A stretch of DNA of 48,576 bases from Thermodesulfobacteriota bacterium (lineage in GTDB: Bacteria > Desulfobacterota > BSN033 > UBA1163): contig JBEKDJ010000002.1 in assembly GCA_050014415.1 (NCBI GenBank), positions 1 to 48,576 of the forward strand, in the 5' to 3' direction. Positions 3,502 to 39,899 of this stretch are shown one piece after another (position 1 is the first letter of the stretch; every line of letters begins with the position of its first letter). The position numbers were made by a program, and so were the translations under genes. The notes beneath the pieces were generated by a model, which did no database searches, was not told the origin of the DNA, and saw only the letters and a program-made list of their open reading frames with translations.

Positions 3502-4272
3502 ATGGCATGGGAAGGTCTTCTTGAGGAAATGGTGAGAATATTCGAAAAGGAGTCTCGATTGATCCATCTTCCCTCACAGGGAAAGGTCGTCTTTGTCGGC
3601 GATACTCATGGAGATCTGGATGCCTCTCAGGAAGTCATCCATCGGTACCTTGAGAAGCCATACCGAATTGTCTTCCTCGGAGACTATGTAGATCGGGGCG
3701 ATCAAGCTGAAGAAAACATCCACTACCTGCTGCGCAAGAAAAGGGAACATCCGAATGAGATTTTCCTCCTGGCAGGTAATCACGAGGGATTCCAGATAAA
3801 AGAGTTTTATCCTGCTAGTTTTTGGGGGCGCCTTTCCTCAGATGAAAAAGAGACCTATGGTCTTCTTTTCTCCAAATTCCCCATTGCCGCTACCTCTCAA
3901 AATGGGATCTTGGCCGTTCACGGCGGGTTGCCCGACCTGAAATCCCTGGACGAGATAGACCGGATCGAATGGGGAGATGTCCATTGGGATCGAACCGTCT
4001 GGGGAGATTTCGTAGAACGAGAGGGCGAGGTGTTGGAAGACTGGGGTGGGAGGCCCCAGCTCGGGCAGCAGTATTTCGAGCGGATAATGGACCGGTATCG
4101 AAAACGGATCTTGATACGATCCCATCAACCCCATGCACATCCGCTGATGTTTAAGAAAAGGTGTATTACCATCTTCACTTGCAATGCCTATGGGCCCATC
4201 CGTACCATTGCGCTCGTCGATATGGAAAAGGAAGTGTATTCTGCAGAAGATATCGTCATCGAAAGGATATGA
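3502..4272 (+). CDS. metallophosphoesterase (PPP-type Ser/Thr phosphatase-like)
   Basis: GDTHGD, GDYVDRG and GNHE motifs in canonical order. ATG 2 nt after the yjbQ stop. Confidence 0.85.
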   Translation: MAWEGLLEEMVRIFEKESRLIHLPSQGKVVFVGDTHGDLDASQEVIHRYLEKPYRIVFLGDYVDRGDQAEENIHYLLRKKREHPNEIFLLAGNHEGFQIKEFYPASFWGRLSSDEKETYGLLFSKFPIAATSQNGILAVHGGLPDLKSLDEIDRIEWGDVHWDRTVWGDFVEREGEVLEDWGGRPQLGQQYFERIMDRYRKRILIRSHQPHAHPLMFKKRCITIFTCNAYGPIRTIALVDMEKEVYSAEDIVIERI

Positions 4273-4303
4273 ATCCAAATTACGGATTTGTTCGAGATTT
4301 GAG

Positions 4304-4990
4304 ATGCCTAAGTTCATCTCCTTCGACATGGACGGGACGCTGATCGCCTCGGATTACACGGATTGGGTCTGGGGCCATGGTATCCCCACGCTTTATGCTG
4401 AGAAGACAGGACTTCCTTTCGAGGAGGCAAAAGCATTGGTGGAGGAGGAATACCGGAAAGTCGGGGAAGGTGCGATCGAGTGGTATGACATCAAATACTG
4501 GTTTCAGTTCTTCCAACTCGGAATCGAGTGTCGGTACGACAATCGTTCCGATTCGTGCCAGATGGGAAGAAGTTGGAAGGCATTGATGGAACAGTTCGTC
4601 GATAAGATCCGTGTCTATCCGGACGTCGACCCTATACTGGATCGTCTAAAAGGTAGATTTCCATTGGTTCTTACTACTAATGCAGGAAGGGAATTCATCG
4701 ATGTCGAGATGAAAGCCACAGGTCTTAGGAGGTATTTCGATCGGATTTTTTCTGCGACCACTGACTTTGGCGAGGTGAAGAAGACGGCTCGTTTTTACCG
4801 CCGGATCTGTCAGGTCCTTCGGACTGATCCGGCGGAAATGGTCCATGTCGGTGACCACTATGAGTTTGACTATCTAGTCCCCCGGAGACTAGGGATCCGT
4901 GCCTTCTATTTGGATCGGTCAGGTCAACAGAAGGGCGACTTCGTCATCCGGGATTTGGGAGATCTGGAGAAAAGACTCCTGAAAATGTGA
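4304..4990 (+). CDS. HAD-superfamily hydrolase
   Basis: Motif I FDMDGTL directly after ATG 4304; later LVLTTNA and VGDHYEFD motifs. The upstream ATG 4184 overlaps the preceding gene and was not used. Confidence 0.8.
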   Translation: MPKFISFDMDGTLIASDYTDWVWGHGIPTLYAEKTGLPFEEAKALVEEEYRKVGEGAIEWYDIKYWFQFFQLGIECRYDNRSDSCQMGRSWKALMEQFVDKIRVYPDVDPILDRLKGRFPLVLTTNAGREFIDVEMKATGLRRYFDRIFSATTDFGEVKKTARFYRRICQVLRTDPAEMVHVGDHYEFDYLVPRRLGIRAFYLDRSGQQKGDFVIRDLGDLEKRLLKM

Positions 4991-5649: not shown

Positions 5650-7065
5650 ATGGGAGAAACGAGAGTGCCGAATCCAAGGATTTTGGTCATTGACGATGAA
5701 ATGATCGTTTGTGAGAGCTGCAAACGGATTTTGGAGGAGGATGGATATGAGGTGGAAACCGCACTCAGCGGGAAGGAGGCCTTTGCGAAAATGCGGGAGA
5801 ACCCTTTCGACATCGTCATTACCGACCTCAAAATGCCAGAGACCGATGGCATGGAAGTCCTGAGAACATTCCGTACGGAGTACCCGGATGTGATCGTCAT
5901 CATGGTTACGGGTTTTTCCACCGTAGAAACTGCAGTCGAGGCCATGAAATCAGGAGCCTTTGACTACATCCCCAAACCCTTCACGCCCGACGAGGTCTCG
6001 ATTGTTGTGAAGAAAGCAATCGAGAAGAAAAGTCTCTTGTTGGAGAATATCTATCTGCGTCAGGAATTACAGGGGAAATATGGGTTCCATAACATTGTGG
6101 GGAAGAGTAAGAGGATGCAGGAAATCTATCGAATGATTGCCAAAGTGGCGATCACCGACAGTACGGTCCTGATCTATGGTCAGAGTGGAACAGGGAAGGA
6201 GTTGATTGCTCGGGCCATCCATTTCAACAGCCCACGAAGAGATAAACAATTCGTCCCAGTGGACTGTGCCGTTCTCTCAGAAAACCTCTTGGAAAGTGAA
6301 TTGTTCGGCCATATCAGAGGCTCTTTTACCGGTGCCGTGACTACCAAGCCAGGGCTCTTCGAGGTAGCGGATGGAGGGACCGTCTTCCTCGATGAGGTGG
6401 GAAACATTAGCCTGGCCATTCAAGCCAAACTCTTGAGAGTACTGCAGGAAAGAGAATTCACACCCGTGGGAGGGACAAAGGCTAAGAAGGTGGAGATTCG
6501 GCTCATCGCCGCCACTAACAAAGACCTAGAGAAGATGATCAAGGAAGGGGCCTTCCGGGAAGATCTCTATTATCGGCTCAACATCGTTCCTATCACCCTC
6601 CCTACCCTGAAAGAGCGACAAGAAGATATTCCTCTTCTCGCCGTCCATTTTCTCAAGAAATACGCTGAAGAAGTTGGGAAGACTATCAAAGGGTTCACAC
6701 CTGAGTCAATAGAGAAACTGATGAGGTACCCCTGGCCTGGGAATGTTCGGGAATTGGAGAATATGATTGAACGAACTGCGGTGATGCTGGACGAGGAAAT
6801 GGTTCGAGTGGAACACTTTGTCCTTCCAGGTCAATTGGAGGGAGGAAGGTTGGAAGACCGCGTTCCGAAGACCAATGAAGAATTGAAGGAGATTAAGAAA
6901 CAGGTGAGAGAGAAGGCGGTTGAGGAAATCGAGAGGGCGTTTGTTCTCGAAGCATTGGAGCGGAATCATTGGAATGCGACCAGAGCCGCGGAAGAGGTGG
7001 GAATGCTTCGGCCGAATTTCCAGGCTCTGATTAGAAAGTATAACCTCCGGGCGAGAGAAGAGTAG
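5650..7065 (+). CDS. sigma-54-dependent response regulator (NtrC-family enhancer-binding protein: REC + AAA+ + HTH)
   Basis: ILVIDDE...DIVITDLKMP receiver, Walker A GQSGTGKE, GSFTGA (GAFTGA-type loop), C-terminal Fis-type HTH. Confidence 0.93.
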   Translation: MGETRVPNPRILVIDDEMIVCESCKRILEEDGYEVETALSGKEAFAKMRENPFDIVITDLKMPETDGMEVLRTFRTEYPDVIVIMVTGFSTVETAVEAMKSGAFDYIPKPFTPDEVSIVVKKAIEKKSLLLENIYLRQELQGKYGFHNIVGKSKRMQEIYRMIAKVAITDSTVLIYGQSGTGKELIARAIHFNSPRRDKQFVPVDCAVLSENLLESELFGHIRGSFTGAVTTKPGLFEVADGGTVFLDEVGNISLAIQAKLLRVLQEREFTPVGGTKAKKVEIRLIAATNKDLEKMIKEGAFREDLYYRLNIVPITLPTLKERQEDIPLLAVHFLKKYAEEVGKTIKGFTPESIEKLMRYPWPGNVRELENMIERTAVMLDEEMVRVEHFVLPGQLEGGRLEDRVPKTNEELKEIKKQVREKAVEEIERAFVLEALERNHWNATRAAEEVGMLRPNFQALIRKYNLRAREE

Positions 7066-7067
7066 AA

Positions 7068-7165
7068 AATGATCAGTTATCAATTTGCAATGCTCAATGA
7101 TCAACGGACAGTTATAAAGCCTGCGGCCGATCAGTAAGAATTGACAATTGACCATTGCCAATTGA
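7068..7165. repeat. type II heptad array (AATNNNC words, then NAATTGA words)
   Basis: 14 in-register heptads: aatgatc agttatc aatttgc aatgctc aatgatc ... gaattga caattga ccattgc caattga. Exact 18-mer AATGATCAGTTATCAATT shared with 34421-34438. Confidence 0.7.
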
Positions 7166-7183
7166 GAGCAGTCGAGGTTCTTC

Positions 7184-7390
7184 TTGTCAGATTTTTTTAA
7201 ATGGTTGATCGTGGGCTGGTCAATTGTCGTGGTAGGTATTGCTGCCCTTGGAACACTTCTGGTCATCAAGTATGGAGAGGTGAAAAAGATTGAGACCGAC
7301 GACGTGAGCCTCTGTTTCATCATAGCTTTTTTCTGTTGGTTGATCCCCATCATTGCCTTCTCTATTCTGGCCCGAACCCTGGGTTTTTGA
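7184..7390 (+). CDS. hypothetical small membrane protein (68 aa, two hydrophobic segments)
   Basis: TTG-initiated ORF with two clear TM-like stretches. Start and reality uncertain. Confidence 0.4.
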   Translation: MSDFFKWLIVGWSIVVVGIAALGTLLVIKYGEVKKIETDDVSLCFIIAFFCWLIPIIAFSILARTLGF

Positions 7391-7401
7391 GAAGAAAACT
7401 A

Positions 7402-7502
7402 GGTGTATAGTTTGCACATTTTTAGATAAATCCAAGTGTTTCGAATAATTATGAATGAAAGCCCCGTTCCTTTTCAAAATACGTATATACTGAATATACA
7501 CC
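7402..7502 (+). promoter_or_regulatory. candidate enhancer (UAS) region for the sigma-54 promoter
   Basis: GGTGTATA (7402-7409) and its complement TATACACC (7495-7502); self-complementary GTATATAC (7483-7490). AT-rich, roughly 110-205 bp upstream of the predicted start site. Confidence 0.3.
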
Positions 7503-7544
7503 AGTCCTTAAAACACCTTATTAAATTCATAAAATATCAAATAA

Positions 7545-26856: not shown

Positions 26857-29800
26857 TCATTCCGATAAAGACCATGTTGCTGTGATCGTTGTTCCCTTTC
26901 CTTTGATCGACTCGATCGCAAAGGATCCACCTGAGAGCTCAGCTCGCTCTCTCATGCTGGTAAGACCTAATCCTCGCCTGGGCCTGTCCGCCGAAAGGTT
27001 TTTCTCAATATCGAATCCCACCCCGTTATCCCGTATCGTTAATTCCATCTTCTCGTCGGTTCCTCTCAACGAGAGATGAACCAGATCCGCTCCACTATGT
27101 TTGGTAATATTGTTCAGGGCCTCCTGCATGATTCTGTAGATGACCGTTTTGAGAGAATCTGGAACTTCGTCTTCTCTAACACCCACCTGGGTTTCAATGC
27201 TGATGCCAGGATAGGTCGTCTTGAACTCCCTGCAAAACCATGAAATGGTTGCTAAGATGCCCAGGTCATCCAGGACAGAGGGCCGCAAATCCATCTGTAT
27301 TCTGCGGGCTTCTTCAATGCTTTGCTGAACAATGGGGATAACGGTCTCCAGCGATTTGACCATTGTTTTTCGCCTGTTCTGACGCATTTCCTGGAGGATG
27401 TTCTCCACCCTGAATTTGATCGTAGACAGGGATTGTCCAAGGCTGTCATGGACTTCGCGCGAGATCCGTTTCCTTTCATTTTCCTGGACCGTCAAGAGCT
27501 GGGAAGAGAGAATCCTGAGCCGCTTCTCAGAATCCCGTATTTCGTCTTCGAGATCAAACCGGTGAAGCGCCTCTCCAATCAATGGCGCCACCGACTCAAT
27601 AAACTCCATCGCCTTAAAGGGTACTTGTCCTTCCCTTTCGTCGGCCAGATGGATTGCTCCGAGCACCTCTCCTCGGTAACGAATGGGAATAATGCTTACA
27701 GACGTAAACCCGTGCTCCAGACAGACACCTCGGAATCTCGATTTCTCCTCTTCTGAAAGCTGACCTACGAATTCAAATGTGTTGGCGCAATGGAAGGAGC
27801 CATGAGCGGTTGTCATGGAACTATCTTGGGGATCGGGATTTCCTGTGATCACTCGAATGCAGGCACACTGGTCTCGTGTGATTGAAAGCAAGTTCTCCGA
27901 TTCCCAGAATGGCTGGCTGAATCCGACATAGGATTCATAGGGAATGAACTTCTGTTCATCCAATACCCGGATGCCTACACATCGGCATCCACTCCAACTT
28001 TGAAGGAGATCGACGACGGCATCCAAATACTCCCTTCGTGCGGCCTTTCTTGAAAAGAGCTCAAGGAGGACGCTGGTCGCATAGGTTCGTCTTTCTATCT
28101 CCTTGCGCTCGGAAATGTCACCTACCGAAGCCACCCATCCGAGCGTCCTTCCTTGAGTATCTTTTAAAGACGAGACCATCACAAGAGCGTCGAAACGCTC
28201 CTCGTTCTTTCTGAGAAAGCGCACTTCGAAGCCTACGCTTGGCATCCGGCCTCTGAGCAGTGCCCGAAAGGATTCCGTTCGAACCTCTGAATCTTCCGGT
28301 GGCCAGAAGTTGAAAGGTGGGGCAGCTCCGATCAATTCCCCTTCGTTCCATCCCGTCATGCGACATAAGGCAGGGTTCACATGGGTGATCCGACCTTTTT
28401 TATCCACAACGAGGATGCCAGTGACAATGGAGTTCTCAATAGCCGCCCGCAGAGCATGCTCAGACTTCGCTTTCTCCTCAGCAAGTTTTTGAGCAGTGAT
28501 ATCTCGTGCGGCTGCAAAAACACCTTGTACCTCTCCTGCTTCATTCCGATATACCGTTGCATTGTACAGTACTTCGGTAATCTGTCCTGAGGTATGTCGG
28601 ATAGAGAGAGGATAATCTCTCACAGACCCTTCCGAGAACACCTGCTCGTATCCCTCTCTTGCCTTCTTGGGTTCGGTAAAGTAGTCCAAGAAATCGCTTC
28701 CGATTAAGTGATCACGGGAAACGCCGGTCGCAGATTCGGTCGCCCTGTTCACATCGGTGATCTTGCCATCGGAACTGATAGTGACAAGGGGGTCAGGGCT
28801 TGCTTCGATGAGACTGCGGTTGTATTGATGGGCGGCTCTCAGAGCCTCCTCTGCACGCTTACGCTCGGTAATGTCAATACCCATCTCCAGAATGAGTGTG
28901 GAGCCGTCTGTGTCGGTGAAGGGGAAGTCGAAGACATCATAAATGCGGCCGTCCGGGCCGGTCCACTCCCACTCATGGGGTACCATGGTTTTCAGAACGG
29001 TATAGGTTTCACAAGTCTCGCAGGGCTCGCTGCGCCCAAACAGATACTCAAAGCAGCGCCGGCCGTGGGATTCGCCGAAACGCTCCCGAAAGAAGTGGTT
29101 TGCAAAGGGCACGTGATAATCCCGTGTCAACAGCACCAAATAAGCCGGCAGTATCTCTAGGACGTCATTGACCCGCTGCCGTTCCGCTTTCACGGCCTCT
29201 TCGGCCCGCTTGCGTTCGGCGATATCCCGCGCAATAGTGGAAAGGAACTCCACCTCTCCATTCGGACCTTTATGTGCGAGGATGACCTGAGAAGCAGGGA
29301 TCTCCGTTCCATCACGGCTCAGAAAGGCAGTCTCGCCGTTCCAGAGACCTGTCTGCAAAGCGGTTGGAATGCCTTCATTCAGAACTACAGCCTTCGTCCA
29401 ATCAGGGTGGGTGTCAGGTATCCTCACTCCCGATATATCCTCCTCTTCGCTGAGGCCAAGCATCTTCCGACCGGCTTTATTTAAGTAGAACAACTGCCCG
29501 TCCAAATTTGCCATTCCTATGAGGTCGGACGTTGCTTCAACAATATGGGCAAGCTGGGTTCTTTCTTTCTCCGTTTGCACACGGTTGGTCACATCTTCCA
29601 ACGAGAAGACTAAGAACTCCACCTCACCCTTTTCGTCTAATATGGGGGTCAAGGTCCAGTCCCAATAGGTCTCTCCCCGCTTAGGATGATCTGGAAAGGT
29701 GAACGGTTGTGCAACAGCCTGATAGGGTATCTTTGTCTCTACGACTTGTCTAAACTTGGCTTCATTTTCCTCATGAGGATAGAATTCGAAATGATTGTGG

Positions 29801-31629
29801 CCAGCAAATTCTGAAACATCACGTTGATGGGATTTGGCATAGGCCGCATTGACTCTGATAAAATTGAGATTTTTGTCAAGAAAGACCAATGGGGTGATCG
29901 TGGAGGTGAAAAAGCCTTCTAAAATCCTCGATTGGTCTCTCAAGGCTTTCTCCGCTCGCATGTATCCAACCATTTCCCCAAGTTCAATGGCAATCGCATT
30001 GATAAGACCTCTTTCTTCCTTTAAGAAAGGTCCTTCATTACTTATCGGTTTTTCTTCTAAGTAATAAATCTCTACACTACCGATTATTTCATCATGGACA
30101 ATGATTTCGCTGGCCTGTCTCCAGGGCGTCTCCTTTAAGTTTTCGGTCTTATATTCCTTCCCATCAAGTAAGATTCGTGCGCAGGTTATTTCGGGATATT
30201 GCCATCCAGACGTAATGAGATTAACAATATTCTGGAGCTTTTCGTCCAACAGAGCATATTGTTTTCCGACATAGTAACTTATGGAATAAAGACAATTGAT
30301 CTCTTGAATTCGTTTATCGAGATCATAGGTCAGGTTTCGCAAAGCTCCTTCGGTCCGCTTCCGTTCAGCAATTTCAGCCTGTAACTCTTTGTTGGTTTTT
30401 AACAGCTCCAAGGTTCTTTCCTGAATACGAAGTTCTAACTCGTCACGGGATCTTCGGAGTTCTTCCTCGGCCTGCTTGCGCTCGGTGATGTCTCGAACTT
30501 GAACCAAATAACCGCTCTGGGCTTCTTTTTGCTCCAAACCCAAGGGGGTGATTAGAACATCAAGATAAATCGCCCCCGATTTTTTTGTGTCATACAATTT
30601 ATGCTCACTGACTTTTTCAAAATCAAAAGCAGCCTCATATCTAACAGATTCTCCCTTTTTCAGCTTCTCTCTTGCTTCATCTGCCAAATTGGGGTCATCA
30701 AAGAGTTTAAATCCTTTCACCTCTTCCGCATCAGATACACCAAAAATCTTAAGGGAGGCTTTATTTACTTCAAGCAATTGACCATCCGAATCATAAAGCT
30801 CAATGCCGATTGGGGATTCACCAAAAATGTTCCTGAAACGTTCTTCACTCTCCTTTAAATTTTTGAATAAGAGATTGTAAGGTTTTGAAAAACCCGTCTG
30901 GATAATGGCCTTATAGATAAAATAAAAAGAAAGGACCTTGAAGATATGGCCGATCAGATTAGAAAGACCATAAGCATCGATATAAAATGTAAAGGCCAAT
31001 TCAGAAACAATGGTCAGGAGAATGGACCAAACCACCCATTGCATGACCTCTCGCTCAAACTCCCTTCGATTTTTAAAAAGCAGGGCAATTGAACCTAAAA
31101 GAATCAGAGAGATGATATATTCACTGATCTTTTTAAACGGGGTTAATCCAAGCCCTTCGACGAAGCAAGTAGGGAAAATATTCCAGTAAAAGATGGACAA
31201 TAACAAAATGGAAGTAGCTAAGGCATATCCAAAAATTAAAGAATTTGCTTTCAACTTTCGCCTAAAAAATAAAGGGGCGATAAGAAGAGAGGTGCTTTCC
31301 ATGTATCGGGCAACAATCCATAGCTGGGTCGGTAAATTGGTTTCATACCCTTGAAATACGCCCATTCCTGTATAAGCCAATGTATGGGTTAGATCTAATG
31401 CGCCAACAAACAGATACGCAATACCAATAAAGAGAAGGTAATTGTTATCGAGAAATCGGCGTGCGTTCCAGGTGATTACGAAAATGCCGAAAGCGACAAC
31501 GATTGAAAATATTTCGGCAAGGCTATGGAAAAGAAGGTAACTGTAAAGACTGGTCAGGTATAGTCCAAAAAAGACCAGAATCCCTATCAGGAAATATGAA
31601 TATTTTTTAGTGTTAACGCCTTGTTCCAT
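26857..31629 (-). CDS. giant sensor histidine kinase (MASE3-like membrane module, about six PAS plus GAF domains, HisKA_3 + HATPase)
   Basis: 1590 aa. N-terminal ~250 aa polytopic. Repeated PAS C-terminal signatures (DITERK, DIAERK, DITAQK, DISERK). H-box REVHDSLGQSLS (NarL-partner type). HATPase C-terminus. Confidence 0.93.
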   Translation of the reverse strand: MEQGVNTKKYSYFLIGILVFFGLYLTSLYSYLLFHSLAEIFSIVVAFGIFVITWNARRFLDNNYLLFIGIAYLFVGALDLTHTLAYTGMGVFQGYETNLPTQLWIVARYMESTSLLIAPLFFRRKLKANSLIFGYALATSILLLSIFYWNIFPTCFVEGLGLTPFKKISEYIISLILLGSIALLFKNRREFEREVMQWVVWSILLTIVSELAFTFYIDAYGLSNLIGHIFKVLSFYFIYKAIIQTGFSKPYNLLFKNLKESEERFRNIFGESPIGIELYDSDGQLLEVNKASLKIFGVSDAEEVKGFKLFDDPNLADEAREKLKKGESVRYEAAFDFEKVSEHKLYDTKKSGAIYLDVLITPLGLEQKEAQSGYLVQVRDITERKQAEEELRRSRDELELRIQERTLELLKTNKELQAEIAERKRTEGALRNLTYDLDKRIQEINCLYSISYYVGKQYALLDEKLQNIVNLITSGWQYPEITCARILLDGKEYKTENLKETPWRQASEIIVHDEIIGSVEIYYLEEKPISNEGPFLKEERGLINAIAIELGEMVGYMRAEKALRDQSRILEGFFTSTITPLVFLDKNLNFIRVNAAYAKSHQRDVSEFAGHNHFEFYPHEENEAKFRQVVETKIPYQAVAQPFTFPDHPKRGETYWDWTLTPILDEKGEVEFLVFSLEDVTNRVQTEKERTQLAHIVEATSDLIGMANLDGQLFYLNKAGRKMLGLSEEEDISGVRIPDTHPDWTKAVVLNEGIPTALQTGLWNGETAFLSRDGTEIPASQVILAHKGPNGEVEFLSTIARDIAERKRAEEAVKAERQRVNDVLEILPAYLVLLTRDYHVPFANHFFRERFGESHGRRCFEYLFGRSEPCETCETYTVLKTMVPHEWEWTGPDGRIYDVFDFPFTDTDGSTLILEMGIDITERKRAEEALRAAHQYNRSLIEASPDPLVTISSDGKITDVNRATESATGVSRDHLIGSDFLDYFTEPKKAREGYEQVFSEGSVRDYPLSIRHTSGQITEVLYNATVYRNEAGEVQGVFAAARDITAQKLAEEKAKSEHALRAAIENSIVTGILVVDKKGRITHVNPALCRMTGWNEGELIGAAPPFNFWPPEDSEVRTESFRALLRGRMPSVGFEVRFLRKNEERFDALVMVSSLKDTQGRTLGWVASVGDISERKEIERRTYATSVLLELFSRKAARREYLDAVVDLLQSWSGCRCVGIRVLDEQKFIPYESYVGFSQPFWESENLLSITRDQCACIRVITGNPDPQDSSMTTAHGSFHCANTFEFVGQLSEEEKSRFRGVCLEHGFTSVSIIPIRYRGEVLGAIHLADEREGQVPFKAMEFIESVAPLIGEALHRFDLEDEIRDSEKRLRILSSQLLTVQENERKRISREVHDSLGQSLSTIKFRVENILQEMRQNRRKTMVKSLETVIPIVQQSIEEARRIQMDLRPSVLDDLGILATISWFCREFKTTYPGISIETQVGVREDEVPDSLKTVIYRIMQEALNNITKHSGADLVHLSLRGTDEKMELTIRDNGVGFDIEKNLSADRPRRGLGLTSMRERAELSGGSFAIESIKGKGTTITATWSLSE

Positions 31630-35833: not shown

Positions 35834-35921
35834 AATCCATTGCGGAATGTAGAATGCGGATTGCAGAATTAAGAACTTGAGATTATCACATTCCGCATTC
35901 CGCACTGCGAATTCCGAATTC
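35834..35921. repeat. type I heptad-word array, inverted halves (GCGGAAT words / ATTCCGC words)
   Basis: gcggaat gtagaat gcggatt gcagaat taagaac, then cacattc cgcattc cgcactg cgaattc cgaattc. The right half forms the tsaE 3' end. Confidence 0.6.
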
Positions 35922-36362
35922 TTTCAAAAGCTTCTCATAGTGTTTGCCTTTGCCAACGATTTCTATAGACCTGGTCTGCTTCCCTGTATAGCGGATTTGT
36001 ATCCAAATGAGTTCTCTTAGAAGAAGTGATGGAATTCTGTCTGCCCATTCAATCGCCGTGATCCCCTCACCCCCCAGATACTCCTCCAAACCCAGTTCCT
36101 CAGCCTCCTTCTCTTCTCTCAACCGGAAAAGATCGATATGGTAAAGGGGCATCTTTCCTGTGTACTCGTTGATCAACGTAAAGGAGGGGCTTGAAATGTA
36201 ACGGGTGTCCCGAACCCCCGCCCCTGCAGCAAGGCCTTTGATGAATTGGGTCTTTCCTGTCCCCAATTCACCCACCAAGGCGACCACATCTCCTCGCAAA
36301 AGAAGACTTCCAAGCCTTTTCCCAATTCGGATCGTCTCTGAGGTACTCCTGGTCTGGAAGGC
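35886..36362 (-). CDS. tsaE: tRNA t6A37 biosynthesis ATPase TsaE (YjeE)
   Basis: VALVGELGTGKTQFIKG P-loop, SPSFTLINEY, LYHIDLFRL, IEWADR. GTG 36362 preferred; the ORF to 36416 reads through a repeat array. Confidence 0.85.
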   Translation of the reverse strand, partial: AFQTRSTSETIRIGKRLGSLLLRGDVVALVGELGTGKTQFIKGLAAGAGVRDTRYISSPSFTLINEYTGKMPLYHIDLFRLREEKEAEELGLEEYLGGEGITAIEWADRIPSLLLRELIWIQIRYTGKQTRSIEIVGKGKHYEKLLKEFGIRSAECGM

Positions 36363-36370
36363 CACTTTTC

Positions 36371-36450
36371 CAATTTGAGATTTAGGATTTGGGATTTCAA
36401 ATTTCAGATTTTTCAATCTGCAATCTACAATCTGCCATTTGAAATTGCAG
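36371..36450. repeat. type I heptad-word array (NNATTTN x6, then AATCTNN x4-5)
   Basis: caatttg agattta ggatttg ggatttc aaatttc agatttt, then aatctgc aatctac aatctgc. Shares exact GCAATCTACAATC (36420-36432) with 40376-40388. Confidence 0.6.
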
Positions 36451-36451
36451 T

Positions 36452-36925
36452 CTAGGCCTTGTACTTAAAATCCTCCGGATTAAGATTTTCCAGCCATTCC
36501 TTCAATTGGTCGCCTTCCTTCTCCATGTCGATGGTCCGCGCCTTTTCGATCACCTGATCCGAGACAAAGATCGGAGCATCTACAGCGAGGGCGATGGCAA
36601 TTGCGTCACTGGGCCGAGAATCGATGATGATCTCTGCTCCTCGCCTCATAAGGTGGATCAATGCATAGTAGGTATTTTCCTTCAGGTCATTCACGATGAT
36701 TTTCACAACCTGAGATTCAAGGGTATTGAGAATACTATGGATCAAATCATGGGTCATAGGCCGATGGGAGCCTATCTTCTTCAATTTCATGGCGATCGCA
36801 TTGGCTTCAAAAGGTCCAATCCATATGGGAAGCCCCGTTTTATTCGATAGGTCCATCAAGAGGACGACGAATCCATTCGATGTGGAATCGAAAGTCAAGA
36901 ATTTCACTTTCATTTCGACAAACAT
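36452..36925 (-). CDS. bifunctional nuclease family protein (BFN / DUF151)
   Basis: LPIWIGPFEANAIAMKL, RPMTHDL, NTYYALIHL and IDSRPSDAIAIAL are hallmark DUF151 motifs. Confidence 0.85.
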   Translation of the reverse strand: MFVEMKVKFLTFDSTSNGFVVLLMDLSNKTGLPIWIGPFEANAIAMKLKKIGSHRPMTHDLIHSILNTLESQVVKIIVNDLKENTYYALIHLMRRGAEIIIDSRPSDAIAIALAVDAPIFVSDQVIEKARTIDMEKEGDQLKEWLENLNPEDFKYKA

Positions 36926-36977
36926 CCTCTTCTCCTTTCACAGACGAATTCCGATCAGACTCGTGCCCTTATCAGGA

Positions 36978-38123
36978 TCAACGAAATCTCAAAGCAGCGC
37001 CCACTCCGTCGCTCTCTCTTAAGATGGTATTCTCTTCAACCCATTTGACCTCTCCGTCCTGACGGAGGGTTGACCTCACCATCTCTTCTCCGAGGTTGAC
37101 AATCTTCATCTCTTCTTTGCAGAGTGGGCAATGGGCGGACGGGTCACCCGGAGAAGGGATCAGGACAAGAGAACTGCATCGGTGGCACTTTCCTCCTGAA
37201 TGAGAAAACGATGTCACGAGATAGAGTGTCTGGATCTGTCCTCCATTCAAGGCCTCCAATGTTCCGTTTAGACCGAAGGTGGACAACCCACCCTTGGGGC
37301 TCCTCTCCTTCAACTCCTCGATCTGCCTGGAGACTTCCTGGCTCTCCTTCTGGAGGAGACGTTCGAAAACCCGCTTCAACACTTTTGAACGTTCCTCTGA
37401 AAAATCGATGGAGAAAGTATCCGCGATCTGCTGTTTGATTCGTTCAGGAAGGAAGGCTCTAAAATTGGCCACGATCCGTTCTTGGCCGATCAGGACCACC
37501 CGTTTCCATTTCCCGGAATCGAAGAGTTCGGTGAGTTGCTCGGCCACCTCTCTGTGATGTTTATCCATATGATCTTTGATGTGACGCTGGTACCTCATCT
37601 GGGCCCATCCTCCTTGATCGTGGCGTCCGGGGACATAACTCTCGATGGAGGATTCGGCCATCAGACCCTCCAGCGAGACTTCAAACAGCTTAGCCGAGTC
37701 CGTATCCACCATGACAGCCAATGTACCTTGATACTGAGAAGACAGGCGGACAAGAGGTTGGAGGGCGGGGAGATCGGAGATAACGCATTCATTTTCAAAA
37801 GGGACGATTGAAGGGTAGGTAAGAAAAACCCCATTGCCACTACAGGAGAAGATCGCCAGCCCATTTACCCCCTCATCATAGGAACGTCGAACCAACCCCT
37901 CCACGTACTTCTCAATCTGTTTTTGGTCTTCGGCAAAGGTCTTTCGCCAATCCTCTCGATCTTTAAGTTGATCATGGATCCTCTTCAGCTGATTTTTCGT
38001 GAAAAGTCGTATCCGTTCCCGCTGTTGCTCGTCATCCTGTTTCGTATTGAGATAGAGGGACACGAAAGGATAGGGACTTTCTTCGATCCGGGCCAATCTC
38101 TTGATCTCACTCTTTATGTCCAT
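36978..38123 (-). CDS. bacterial eRF1/Pelota-like (baeRF-type) protein with C-terminal Zn-ribbon insert
   Basis: PGRHDQGGWAQMRYQRHIKDHMDKHHREVAE aligns without gaps to the eRF1 GGQ-loop region [30 protein letters not shown]; Gln is replaced by Trp. CHRC-x17-CPLC near the C-terminus. Confidence 0.75.
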   Translation of the reverse strand: MDIKSEIKRLARIEESPYPFVSLYLNTKQDDEQQRERIRLFTKNQLKRIHDQLKDREDWRKTFAEDQKQIEKYVEGLVRRSYDEGVNGLAIFSCSGNGVFLTYPSIVPFENECVISDLPALQPLVRLSSQYQGTLAVMVDTDSAKLFEVSLEGLMAESSIESYVPGRHDQGGWAQMRYQRHIKDHMDKHHREVAEQLTELFDSGKWKRVVLIGQERIVANFRAFLPERIKQQIADTFSIDFSEERSKVLKRVFERLLQKESQEVSRQIEELKERSPKGGLSTFGLNGTLEALNGGQIQTLYLVTSFSHSGGKCHRCSSLVLIPSPGDPSAHCPLCKEEMKIVNLGEEMVRSTLRQDGEVKWVEENTILRESDGVGAALRFR

Positions 38124-38196
38124 ATGGAACTCTCCGAGGAGAAAACAAGTCAGGTTCTGAGGCGAATGAATAACGACAGAGATTGAGGATAGTCTT

Positions 38197-38224
38197 ATTA
38201 TAATGAAGAATAATTGAAAATCAA
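38197..38224 (-). promoter_or_regulatory. near-consensus sigma-70 promoter for the eRF1-like/nuclease cassette
   Basis: Minus strand: TTGATT (38224-38219), 16-nt spacer, TATAAT (38202-38197). About 70 nt upstream of ATG 38123. Confidence 0.5.
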
Positions 38225-38345: not shown

Positions 38346-39899
38346 TCAAATTCTTCTTTCAAGTAGGGCAGGGATTTTTTGAATAAGATCGGTCGCTATC
38401 AGAGATTTCTCTCCTTTTTCCAGAGCGATCTCATCGCCGGCCAATCCATGGAGATAGACAGACATCTGAAGGGAGGGAAGGATGTCAAACCCTTGGCAGA
38501 TCAATCCCCCGATCATCCCGGTGAGCACATCTCCTGTTCCCCCTGAGGCCATTCCTGGATTGCCTGACGGGTTGATAAAGATCTCCCCTTTGGGAGTGGC
38601 GATCAGGGTACGATGTCCTTTGAGGACGAGATGAACGTGTCGGGACTGGGAGAAGTTTCTGCTGATACCGATCCGATCTTCTTGGACTTCTCTGGGAGTG
38701 GATCCGATCAGCTTTGCCATCTCTCCAGGATGGGGTGTCAGGATGAGGGATCGGTTCATGGCAGGAAGGATTTTGGGCTGTGTTGCCAGAGCGGTTAACC
38801 CATCGGCATCGAGAACGATTGGGAGATTCAAGGTCTTGATCAGTTTGAGGATGAGCGACTGGGTTTCCTTAGTCGTCCCGATCCCCGGACCAATGATCAC
38901 AGCCTTCTTGTTTTCGCAGAGGTGAAGGATGGAGTTTAAGGCCCGGAGACTCAGGGTCTGCTTAGGGGTTTCGGGGAGAGGTTCTGTCATCACCTCAGTC
39001 AGTTTCACCTCCATGATTGCATTCAGGCTCTTTGGGATGGCTAGGGTGACCAGACCTGCCCCCATCCTGAGAGCAGCTTCACACGCCATGGCCGCTGCTC
39101 CGGTCTTGCCAACCGATCCGGCGATGACGAGAAGGTGCCCGTAATCTCCCTTATGGGTTTCCGGCCGTCGCTGCACCGAGAGCCATCTTCTAATGTCGCC
39201 GCTTTCCAGAAGAAACGTCTGGAATCTCTCCTCCTCTACCAGCCTCTTGGGGATGCTGATATCGATGATTTTTAACTCTCCTGTATAGTCGATTCCTGGA
39301 GAGATGAGATGTCCGACTTTCGGCAGACCGAAGGTAACAGTGAGCGAAGCCCGAATCGCCGTCCCGAGTGGTTTGCCGGTATTGGCATCTAACCCAGAGG
39401 CAATGTCGACTGCGACCATCGGCTTCTGAAGACTGTTGAGGTGGTCGATCACCTCTCGATAATAACCTCGGACCTCGGCATCCAGTCCCGTGCCGAAGAT
39501 GGAGTCGATCAGGAGATCAAACTTCTCCAGATCCTTCTTGATCTTTTGGTAATCTTTGGAAGAGGGAACAGAGACGACCTCTCCTTTCATGCGAAGGAAG
39601 ATCTGGAAATTGGTCTCTGCATCCCCTCGGAGAGCTTTCGGGTCAGCGAGGAGAAAGGCCTTCACCGGAATCCCTCGATTCAGAAGGTATCGACCGATCA
39701 CAAAACCATCTCCCCCATTATTTCCCTTTCCGGCGATGATCGCTGCTTTCTTCTTCAGAATATCCGGAAAGGCATTGGAGATGACCTCGGCGGCTCCTCT
39801 CCCTGCATTCTCCATCAGGACGATTCCAGGAATTCGGTATGTCTCAATGGCCTTCCGATCCAATTCTTGCATCTGCTCAGCGGTTGCGACCTTCATCAT
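38346..39899 (-). CDS. nnr: bifunctional NAD(P)H-hydrate repair enzyme (epimerase + ADP-dependent dehydratase)
   Basis: 517 aa. YjeF_N (GKGNNGGDGFV) and carbohydrate-kinase-type C-terminal half (GGTGDVLTGMIG). Confidence 0.92.
   Translation of the reverse strand: MMKVATAEQMQELDRKAIETYRIPGIVLMENAGRGAAEVISNAFPDILKKKAAIIAGKGNNGGDGFVIGRYLLNRGIPVKAFLLADPKALRGDAETNFQIFLRMKGEVVSVPSSKDYQKIKKDLEKFDLLIDSIFGTGLDAEVRGYYREVIDHLNSLQKPMVAVDIASGLDANTGKPLGTAIRASLTVTFGLPKVGHLISPGIDYTGELKIIDISIPKRLVEEERFQTFLLESGDIRRWLSVQRRPETHKGDYGHLLVIAGSVGKTGAAAMACEAALRMGAGLVTLAIPKSLNAIMEVKLTEVMTEPLPETPKQTLSLRALNSILHLCENKKAVIIGPGIGTTKETQSLILKLIKTLNLPIVLDADGLTALATQPKILPAMNRSLILTPHPGEMAKLIGSTPREVQEDRIGISRNFSQSRHVHLVLKGHRTLIATPKGEIFINPSGNPGMASGGTGDVLTGMIGGLICQGFDILPSLQMSVYLHGLAGDEIALEKGEKSLIATDLIQKIPALLERRI

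Follow-up and report, generated by a model that had tools for sequence, protein, structure and literature searches.

A Balon-type baeRF_family10 gene beside a resident DUF151 gene in a Thermodesulfobacteriota genome

The first 48,576 nt of contig JBEKDJ010000002.1 (assembly GCA_050014415.1, a Thermodesulfobacteriota bacterium; this whole stretch is referred to here as the window) carry, between nnr (yjeF) and tsaE (yjeE), a gene for a 381-aa protein followed by a gene for a 157-aa protein with a BFN/DUF151 domain. The 381-aa gene, called the factor gene below, encodes a Balon-type bacterial member of the aeRF1 clade (Pfam baeRF_family10), and its adjacency to the DUF151 gene is positional, an inherited synteny and not a functional coupling. 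Structural and biochemical work has established Balon, Msmeg1130, and Rv2629 as hibernation factors of the ribosomal A site (Helena-Bueno et al. 2024, PMC10901736), and the 381-aa protein is probably a non-hydrolytic A-site stress factor of the same type, its gene lying in a slot between a promoter resident after nnr and the genes BFN-tsaE-lysC. An earlier reading made from the sequence alone had instead described a promoter-equipped two-gene cassette in which an eRF1/Pelota-like factor is coupled to a nuclease. That "factor plus nuclease" model is corrected here, and the gene is assigned to the Balon family, whose hibernation factors were characterised recently. The accompanying statement that bacterial eRF1-like families are known only from comparative genomics is outdated, given that Balon, Msmeg1130, and Rv2629 have been characterised (PMC10901736) and Msmeg1130 belongs to the same Pfam family as the 381-aa protein.

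Family, fold, and conserved motifs

The best Pfam match of the 381-aa protein was PF18854, baeRF_family10 (99.1 bits versus a cut-off of 27.1, E = 3.5e-28), which spans residues 119-253 and profile positions 1-139 of 143, corresponding to the M (RNase-H-like) domain. Weaker matches to acVLRF1, baeRF family 2, and eRF1_2 (E = 1.9e-8) overlap it. The NCBIfam models for aRF1/eRF1 (TIGR03676, 61.8 versus a cut-off of 234.7) and for Pelota/Dom34 (TIGR00111, 21.2 versus 177.65) both scored below cut-off. When searched against the PDB as a single sequence, the protein matched Balon MSMEG_1130 (Msmeg1130) best and from end to end (E = 1.9e-9), with A. pernix aRF1 in second place (1.8e-7). A family profile of 48 sequences returned MSMEG_1130 (2.3e-39), Halobacterium aRF1 (4af1, 1.7e-30), Rv2629 (1.5e-26), and human eRF1 (~7e-19), and its match to P. 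urativorans Balon was limited to the N-terminal ~150 positions (E = 2.3e-14). We also scanned Msmeg1130 and Rv2629 with Pfam, using sequences rebuilt from the PDB-search alignments, and found baeRF_family10 (PF18854, 124.6 bits) in the former and baeRF_family2 in the latter.

An AlphaFold2 model built on the 48-sequence alignment (predicted local distance difference test score, pLDDT, 94.7; predicted template-modelling score, pTM, 0.90) led to the same family. Using Foldseek against the PDB, the top structures were ribosome-bound Msmeg1130 (8v9l_z/8v9j_z, template-modelling score (TM) 0.83-0.85), then Rv2629 (8v9k_z, 0.74-0.76) and P. urativorans Balon (8rd8/8rdv/8rdw, 0.65-0.70), with aRF1/eRF1 (TM at most 0.55) and Pelota/Dom34 (TM at most 0.42) lower. 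The protein is divided into N (~1-130), M (~131-255), and C (~256-381) domains; NIKS is absent from the sequence, GGW occupies the GGQ position, and the segment A-L-Q-P-L aligns with F-I-H-P-L of Msmeg1130. It is, in sum, a three-domain member of the eRF1/Pelota superfamily without a canonical GGQ. The eRF1/Pelota-like identity proposed in the sequence-only reading therefore stands on the eRF1_2 and baeRF_family10 matches, the family profiles, and the fold, and both checks suggested with that reading (a profile search and a structural superposition) favour Balon-type proteins over Pelota and aRF1/eRF1.

The M-domain loop (G166-R-H-D-Q-G-G-W173-A-Q175-M-R-Y-Q-R-H181; PGRHDQGGWAQMRYQRH...) aligns without gaps with the GGQ loop of aRF1/eRF1 (GGQSQRRY or GGQSALRF) in HMMER alignments. 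W173 faces the catalytic Gln and Q175 lies two residues on, exactly as had been read from the letters alone. Given that A. pernix aRF1 (GGQSQ) also has a Gln at this +2 position, opposite Q175, the latter is probably not a displaced catalytic Gln. A zinc ribbon is inserted in the C domain, comprising C313-H-R-C316, 15 residues, and C332-P-L-C335; the ribbon had been recognised near the C-terminus before, as CHRC-x17-CPLC, and of that description only the spacing (x15, not x17) needed amendment.

Both motifs are strongly conserved. The consensus GRHxQGGW[S/A]QxR[Y/F]QRH holds over ~130 representatives of 50%-identity clusters, and in 48 diverse sequences (24-40% identical to the 381-aa protein) G172 and W173 are invariant, G171, Q175, R177, Q179, R180, and H181 are at least 90% conserved, and the four ribbon cysteines are the consensus. 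Among close homologues, 117 of 120 keep GGW and all four cysteines. The representative library held 2726 clusters of homologues at E <= 1e-3 (189 at E <= 1e-30), and a profile made from a 19-sequence alignment around QGGW[SA]Q[MAS]R[YF] located at least 598 loci with GGW-type homologues in bacteria sampled at one genome per species. These are spread over Thermodesulfobacteriota, Acidobacteriota, Chloroflexota, Actinomycetota, Nitrospinota, Melainabacteria, Latescibacterota, and others. The GGW loop, in which Trp replaces the catalytic Gln, and the ribbon of four cysteines together define a large multi-phylum subgroup.

Proposed role and the catalytic alternative

The characterised proteins provide the basis for a likely role. 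Occupancy of the A site by Balon, Msmeg1130, and Rv2629 is independent of mRNA, they associate with EF-Tu(GDP), and they have neither NIKS nor GGQ (PMC10901736). The same study tested two mycobacterial Balon homologues for translation inhibition in vitro, found that Msmeg1130 inhibits translation without peptide release, described a recovery defect in a knockout, and reported stress-operon contexts for Balon genes (PMC10901736). A Balon homologue has also been described on hibernating Synechocystis ribosomes in a preprint (bioRxiv 10.64898/2026.07.03.736309).

By homology to these three proteins, we propose that during stress or stationary phase the 381-aa protein would enter the ribosomal A site independently of mRNA, mimicking a tRNA or release factor. 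The N domain, which lacks NIKS, would contact the decoding centre with no codon reading, and the M-domain loop would reach the peptidyl-transferase centre, where its invariant Trp, together with neighbouring Gln, Arg, and His residues, may bind rRNA or the CCA end of a tRNA, with the Trp acting as a stacking contact, and would not position a hydrolytic water. The C domain may contact the factor-binding site and EF-Tu, with the zinc ribbon replacing the EF-Tu-contacting hairpin of Balon, and the outcome would be a ribosome that is reversibly silenced and protected. The gene itself, apparently acquired once between the post-nnr promoter and BFN-tsaE-lysC, would be expressed together with housekeeping genes. 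The family, fold, motifs, and locus history behind this proposal are observed.

With respect to the ribbon, a two-strand insert in the C domain of these proteins has been regarded as a degenerate zinc ribbon (PMC6514570). The corresponding insertion in the 381-aa protein is a four-Cys ribbon, and the Msmeg1130 segment aligned with it has no Cys; we infer that the insertion may be the counterpart of the EF-Tu-contacting hairpin described in PMC10901736.

The genomic context of distant homologues varies. Clustering of the neighbours around 67 of them revealed no family-wide partner, and the largest clusters were clade-specific, comprising histidine kinases, a PHP-domain protein, an FAD oxidoreductase (Vicinamibacterales), and DnaJ/ClpB (Anaerolineae). 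In the Anaerolineae, a GGW-type family-10 gene is preceded by a DnaJ-type gene and followed by ClpB, all on one strand (in locus L060, the flanks lie at 4006-4959 (+) and 6054-7522 (+); likewise in L068, L073, and L074), which suggests heat-shock or proteostasis co-regulation of the family-10 gene in this class and agrees with the stress operons reported for Balon genes (PMC10901736). Separately, we noted a divergently oriented FAD-dependent oxidoreductase of the DAO family directly upstream at 11 acidobacterial loci (L062, L063, L067, L069, and others; Vicinamibacterales), an adjacency that is probably a clade-level synteny.

Several points weigh against this proposal. The near-invariant loop is closer to that of aRF1 (GGQSQxRY) than to the degenerate loop of Msmeg1130, and hydrolysis sometimes survives replacement of the GGQ glutamine. 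Neither NCBIfam equivalog cut-off was reached (NF052289, Rv2629 family RHF, 79.9 versus 320; NF052288, MSMEG_1130 family RHF, 60.4 versus 480), and the 381-aa protein is a homologue and not an orthologue of Rv2629 or MSMEG_1130. Equivalents of the "lasso loop", "bL27 trap", and "HP motif" of Balon, which the published text describes without residue numbers, were not located in the protein, and the housekeeping context of its gene differs from the stress operons of Balon genes. Our literature searches returned no paper characterising a GGW/zinc-ribbon member experimentally, and Burroughs and Aravind, who defined family 10 in 2019, singled it out as possibly still catalytic (PMC6514570).

The foremost alternative is that the GGW/zinc-ribbon subgroup acts catalytically in rescue, by hydrolysing peptidyl-tRNA or by cutting at the CCA end in the way of Vms1/ANKZF1, and resolves stalled ribosomes or 50S-peptidyl-tRNA instead of hibernating ribosomes. 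The loop is conserved in the manner of an active site, both in the 48 diverse sequences and in the ~130 representatives, the G-W-S-Q of family members (G172-W-A-Q175 in the 381-aa protein) formally fits the VLRF1-type GxxQ, the Pfam acVLRF1 model clears its cut-off with 59.2 bits, 40 fewer than family 10, and NCBI labels some members "Vms1/Ankzf1 family peptidyl-tRNA hydrolase". However, every member has Trp opposite the catalytic Gln, and the presence of the +2 Gln in A. pernix aRF1 speaks against a shifted catalytic Gln. The NCBIfam acVLRF1 model reaches only 27.9 versus a cut-off of 125, the closest structures are non-catalytic hibernation factors, and Msmeg1130, from the same Pfam family, does not release peptide (PMC10901736). 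We thus consider a catalytic role unlikely. A Vms1-like GxxQ reading of G-W-S-Q was also tried as the primary model and rejected, given that its Gln falls opposite the +2 Gln in the GGQSQ of A. pernix aRF1, which is not catalytic.

A further suggestion, which we rate as rather improbable, is that the GGW/zinc-ribbon subgroup (hundreds of species in at least 10 phyla) is functionally distinct from characterised Balon, for instance with the Trp stacking either on A2602 or on the P-site tRNA residue A76. If this were true, a loop with otherwise aRF1-like catalytic geometry could block the peptidyl-transferase centre in a new way or retain some release or rescue activity, and co-transcription with DUF151 and tsaE in the present clade could tie the factor to tRNA or rRNA processing. 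Regardless of function, the Pfam family of Msmeg1130 also holds a much larger, multi-phylum subgroup with a near-invariant aRF1-like loop, a Gln-to-Trp replacement, and the ancestral zinc ribbon kept, which makes the subgroup a natural target for asking how aeRF1 turned from a release factor into a hibernation factor.

Locus history and the DUF151 gene

The features of the locus are as follows, all on the minus strand:

35886..36416, minus: tsaE, t6A ATPase subunit, downstream flank (Pfam TsaE, E = 1.1e-36, residues 23-150; TIGR00150 above cut-off)
36452..36925, minus: 157-aa BFN/DUF151-domain gene, TM0160 homologue (open reading frame; Pfam PF02577, E = 2.1e-37)
36926..36977, minus: 52-nt spacer between the 381-aa gene and BFN, with a Shine-Dalgarno-like GGAGAAGAGG ahead of the BFN ATG
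36978..38123, minus: 381-aa baeRF_family10 gene (Balon-type, aeRF1 superfamily; open reading frame; Pfam PF18854)
38197..38224, minus: sigma-70-like promoter element TTGATT-N16-TATAAT (10/12 consensus matches), ~75 nt upstream of the 381-aa open reading frame
38346..39899, minus: nnr, bifunctional NAD(P)H-hydrate epimerase/dehydratase, upstream flank (Pfam YjeF_N and Carb_kinase; TIGR00196, TIGR00197)

The wider housekeeping string reads ftsH-folP-glmM-pdxJ-acpS-nnr-[381-aa gene]-BFN-tsaE-lysC-cimA. On this layout the sequence-only reading was accurate: the open reading frames, the 52-nt gap, the nnr and tsaE flanks, the DUF151 identity of the downstream gene, and the TTGATT-16-TATAAT element (the top-scoring sigma-70-like site of the region) are all as it gave them.

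Comparison of loci within the clade, a Syntrophaceae-like deltaproteobacterial lineage searched first by the factor and then by BFN, told a different story about the pair. The order glmM-pdxJ-acpS-nnr-factor-BFN-tsaE-lysC-cimA was identical in 19 and then in 13 species-level genomes found by the factor (homologues 64-79% identical). The glmM-to-cimA string as such occurs in ~50 species-level genomes, with the factor gene absent or decayed in ~20 of these, and at least 15 close relatives have no eRF1-like gene at the locus (for example L113, L116, L119-L122, L128, L133, L134, L140, L142, L144, L146, L148, and L150). BFN, on the other hand, has its place between nnr and tsaE at every one of the 62 related loci with visible flanks. 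Directly after nnr, the element TTGATTTT-N8-10-TCTTCATT-TAAGAT is found at 10 of 28 loci with the factor and 15 of 21 without it, and a second promoter-like variant (TTGATTCC...GTTAGGAT) likewise occurs in both classes; the element at 38197..38224 is, by its sequence and position, apparently orthologous to that downstream of nnr in factor-less relatives. Given that BFN and the promoter-like element are present in both types of locus, both are resident and the factor gene alone is variable. Neither a promoter-equipped two-gene cassette nor an inserted pair, as previously claimed, is compatible with these loci. That claim had started from the direct adjacency of nnr and tsaE in many bacteria; we found this to be correct for E. 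coli, in which the two genes overlap. A recent horizontal insertion of the pair was also considered, and was rejected on account of the synteny, the common promoter, and the composition.

These data bear directly on the idea of a surveillance module made up of the two genes, with the DUF151 nuclease recruited or licensed by the A-site factor and then cleaving mRNA, tRNA, or rRNA where ribosomes have stalled. In its favour, ~28 species-level genomes of the clade show same-strand adjacency at 21-117 nt, making co-transcription likely, plant DUF151 proteins have DNase and RNase activity in vitro (PMC7249048), and the 157-aa protein keeps the Thr-His and Asp that are putatively catalytic in TM0160. 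However, all nine genes of the string are syntenic, and adjacency inside the clade therefore carries no independent information. Outside it, BFN, nnr, and tsaE are all lacking within 5 kb of the factor homologue at each of 67 loci (48% identity or less), and an eRF1-like gene is found at none of 14 distant BFN loci and none of ~15 outgroup nnr/BFN/tsaE loci. The outgroup genomes (BFN 57-72% identical) have nnr...BFN-tsaE with no factor, and in two metagenome-assembled genomes the closest out-of-clade factor homologue (48%) is on a different contig from BFN-tsaE (L036 versus L161; L035 versus L157). In all lineages that lose the factor, BFN is kept, and it is the more strongly conserved of the two; nuclease activity is undemonstrated for any bacterial DUF151, and neither protein matches a known defence-system model in PADLOC (E <= 0.01). 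The DUF151 adjacency is thus unconserved in every relative outside one syntenic clade, and we regard the coupling proposed in the sequence-only reading as very unlikely.

The factor gene appears to have a history of its own. In a rough neighbour-joining tree of nnr, lysC, and BFN, the factor is present on the deepest in-group branch and its absences are nested inside clades in which it is present, so that it looks to have been gained once and lost at least seven times. Remnants are still visible in one relative as residues 1-73 and 249-380 with an internal deletion (L149) and in others as C-terminal (L131, L129) or N-terminal (L125, L127) scraps. One gain and at least seven losses, beside an unchanged promoter and unchanged neighbours, show the factor to be accessory and dispensable. 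The repeated losses and remnants could also be taken to mean that this lineage carries the gene as a passenger that is decaying or has no function, but the gene is intact in the window and in at least 25 species, keeps its GGW and cysteines as noted above, and has a ratio of nonsynonymous to synonymous substitution (dN/dS) of ~0.07-0.09, similar to nnr (0.02-0.04 for BFN, likewise a sign of purifying selection; all values approximate, given that dS is saturated), which indicates purifying selection where it is kept and leaves this reading with hardly any credit.

In outgroup Syntrophobacterales-like genomes (L159, L161, L162, and L163), ~1.2-1.5 kb separates nnr from BFN and another gene occupies the junction; in L161, at 3928-4932 (+), it encodes a 334-aa BpsA_C (branched-chain polyamine synthase-like) protein (Pfam E = 5e-61). 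The nnr/BFN junction therefore looks like a slot that has taken up genes repeatedly behind the resident promoter.

The 157-aa BFN protein matches TM0160 (PDB 1vjl/1sj5) over the whole domain (E = 3e-27) and keeps the Thr-His and Asp proposed as its active site (PMC7249048). It is in this respect like the stand-alone bacterial DUF151/BFN proteins TM0160 and Rv1829, and unlike the plant BBD nucleases in that UVR and HCR domains are absent. Only the plant fusion proteins have a demonstrated DNase and RNase activity in vitro (PMC7249048), and the "nuclease" label of bacterial DUF151 is one carried over from plant BBD proteins. Across the clade, BFN is 82-95% identical, compared with 57-76% for tsaE. 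We observed it directly upstream of tsaE-lysC-cimA in every genome of an order-level group (L102-L166), where no other gene of the string is as strongly conserved; the link to tsaE was not seen in the distant BFN loci L167-L180. So strong a constraint, in a housekeeping operon that also encodes a t6A tRNA-modification subunit, may merit separate study.

Regarding expression, no convincing terminator was found between the 381-aa gene and BFN (the sole candidate, 37008..36990, has 3 GC pairs), and terminator-like sites in the region are no more numerous than in shuffles. With a spacer of 21-117 nt among relatives, BFN is probably co-transcribed with the upstream 381-aa gene. Rfam gave no match in the window, the pair shows no GC anomaly, and no repeat boundaries were seen around it, although no systematic search for these was made. 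The first ~20 codons of the listed tsaE open reading frame are probably not translated, with the true start further downstream, because the Pfam TsaE match begins at residue 23. The BFN-tsaE spacer and these codons (36370-36450 (-)) are rich in AT and contain three copies of AGATTG, several of AAATC, and a small hairpin (CAGATTgaaaAATCTG); folding of the spacer as RNA gave an unconvincing z-score of -1.8. Further downstream of the housekeeping string and unrelated to the 381-aa gene, a gene at 26857-31629 (-) encodes a 1590-aa sensor histidine kinase with a MASE3 membrane domain, many PAS domains, and HisKA_3/HATPase_c.

The locus offers a clean natural experiment, with one gain and at least seven losses of a gene while promoter and neighbours stay unchanged. 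Neither this history nor the subgroup alters current understanding, and we see the GGW/zinc-ribbon subgroup as a modest lead.

Comparison with known systems

Among the known members of the superfamily, Pelota/Dom34 resembles the 381-aa protein as a non-catalytic A-site factor with similar M and C domains. It nevertheless ranked well below the Balon and aRF1/eRF1 chains in Foldseek, and the Pelota N domain is an Sm-like barrel, unlike the N domain of aRF1.

The likeness to aRF1/eRF1 is closer. The M-domain loops align without gaps (VPGKHKMGGQSQRRYER in the pairing of the 381-aa protein with aRF1, against VPGRHDQGGWAQMRYQRH), and Halobacterium aRF1 (4af1) has a zinc ribbon at the same position in its C domain. 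The differences are that GGQ is replaced by GGW throughout the family, that the 381-aa protein has neither NIKS nor other motifs for reading stop codons, and that its host is a bacterium, which terminates with RF1/RF2.

P. urativorans Balon and Rv2629 (8v9k) belong to the same clade (baeRF-1) and share the architecture (TM 0.65-0.76). Rv2629 differs in its Pfam family, baeRF_family2, and is alike in having a Gly-Trp in its M-domain loop, reading A-G-W where family 10 has G-G-W. We note that the existing cryo-EM map of Rv2629 (PDB 8v9k, chain z) could already show the contacts of this Trp.

Msmeg1130 of M. smegmatis (PDB 8v9j/8v9l) is the closest of all. It differs in its low identity to the 381-aa protein (~18%), in its equivalog model, in a degenerate loop of its own (GQAPQERAGQMREQRQ, where the 381-aa protein reads GRHDQGGWAQMRYQRH), in having no Cys at the place of the four-Cys ribbon, and in genomic context, which for the 381-aa gene is housekeeping and not hypoxia or stress. 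It shares with the 381-aa protein the Pfam family, a match over the full length, the best fold match, and three aeRF1-type domains that carry neither NIKS nor GGQ.

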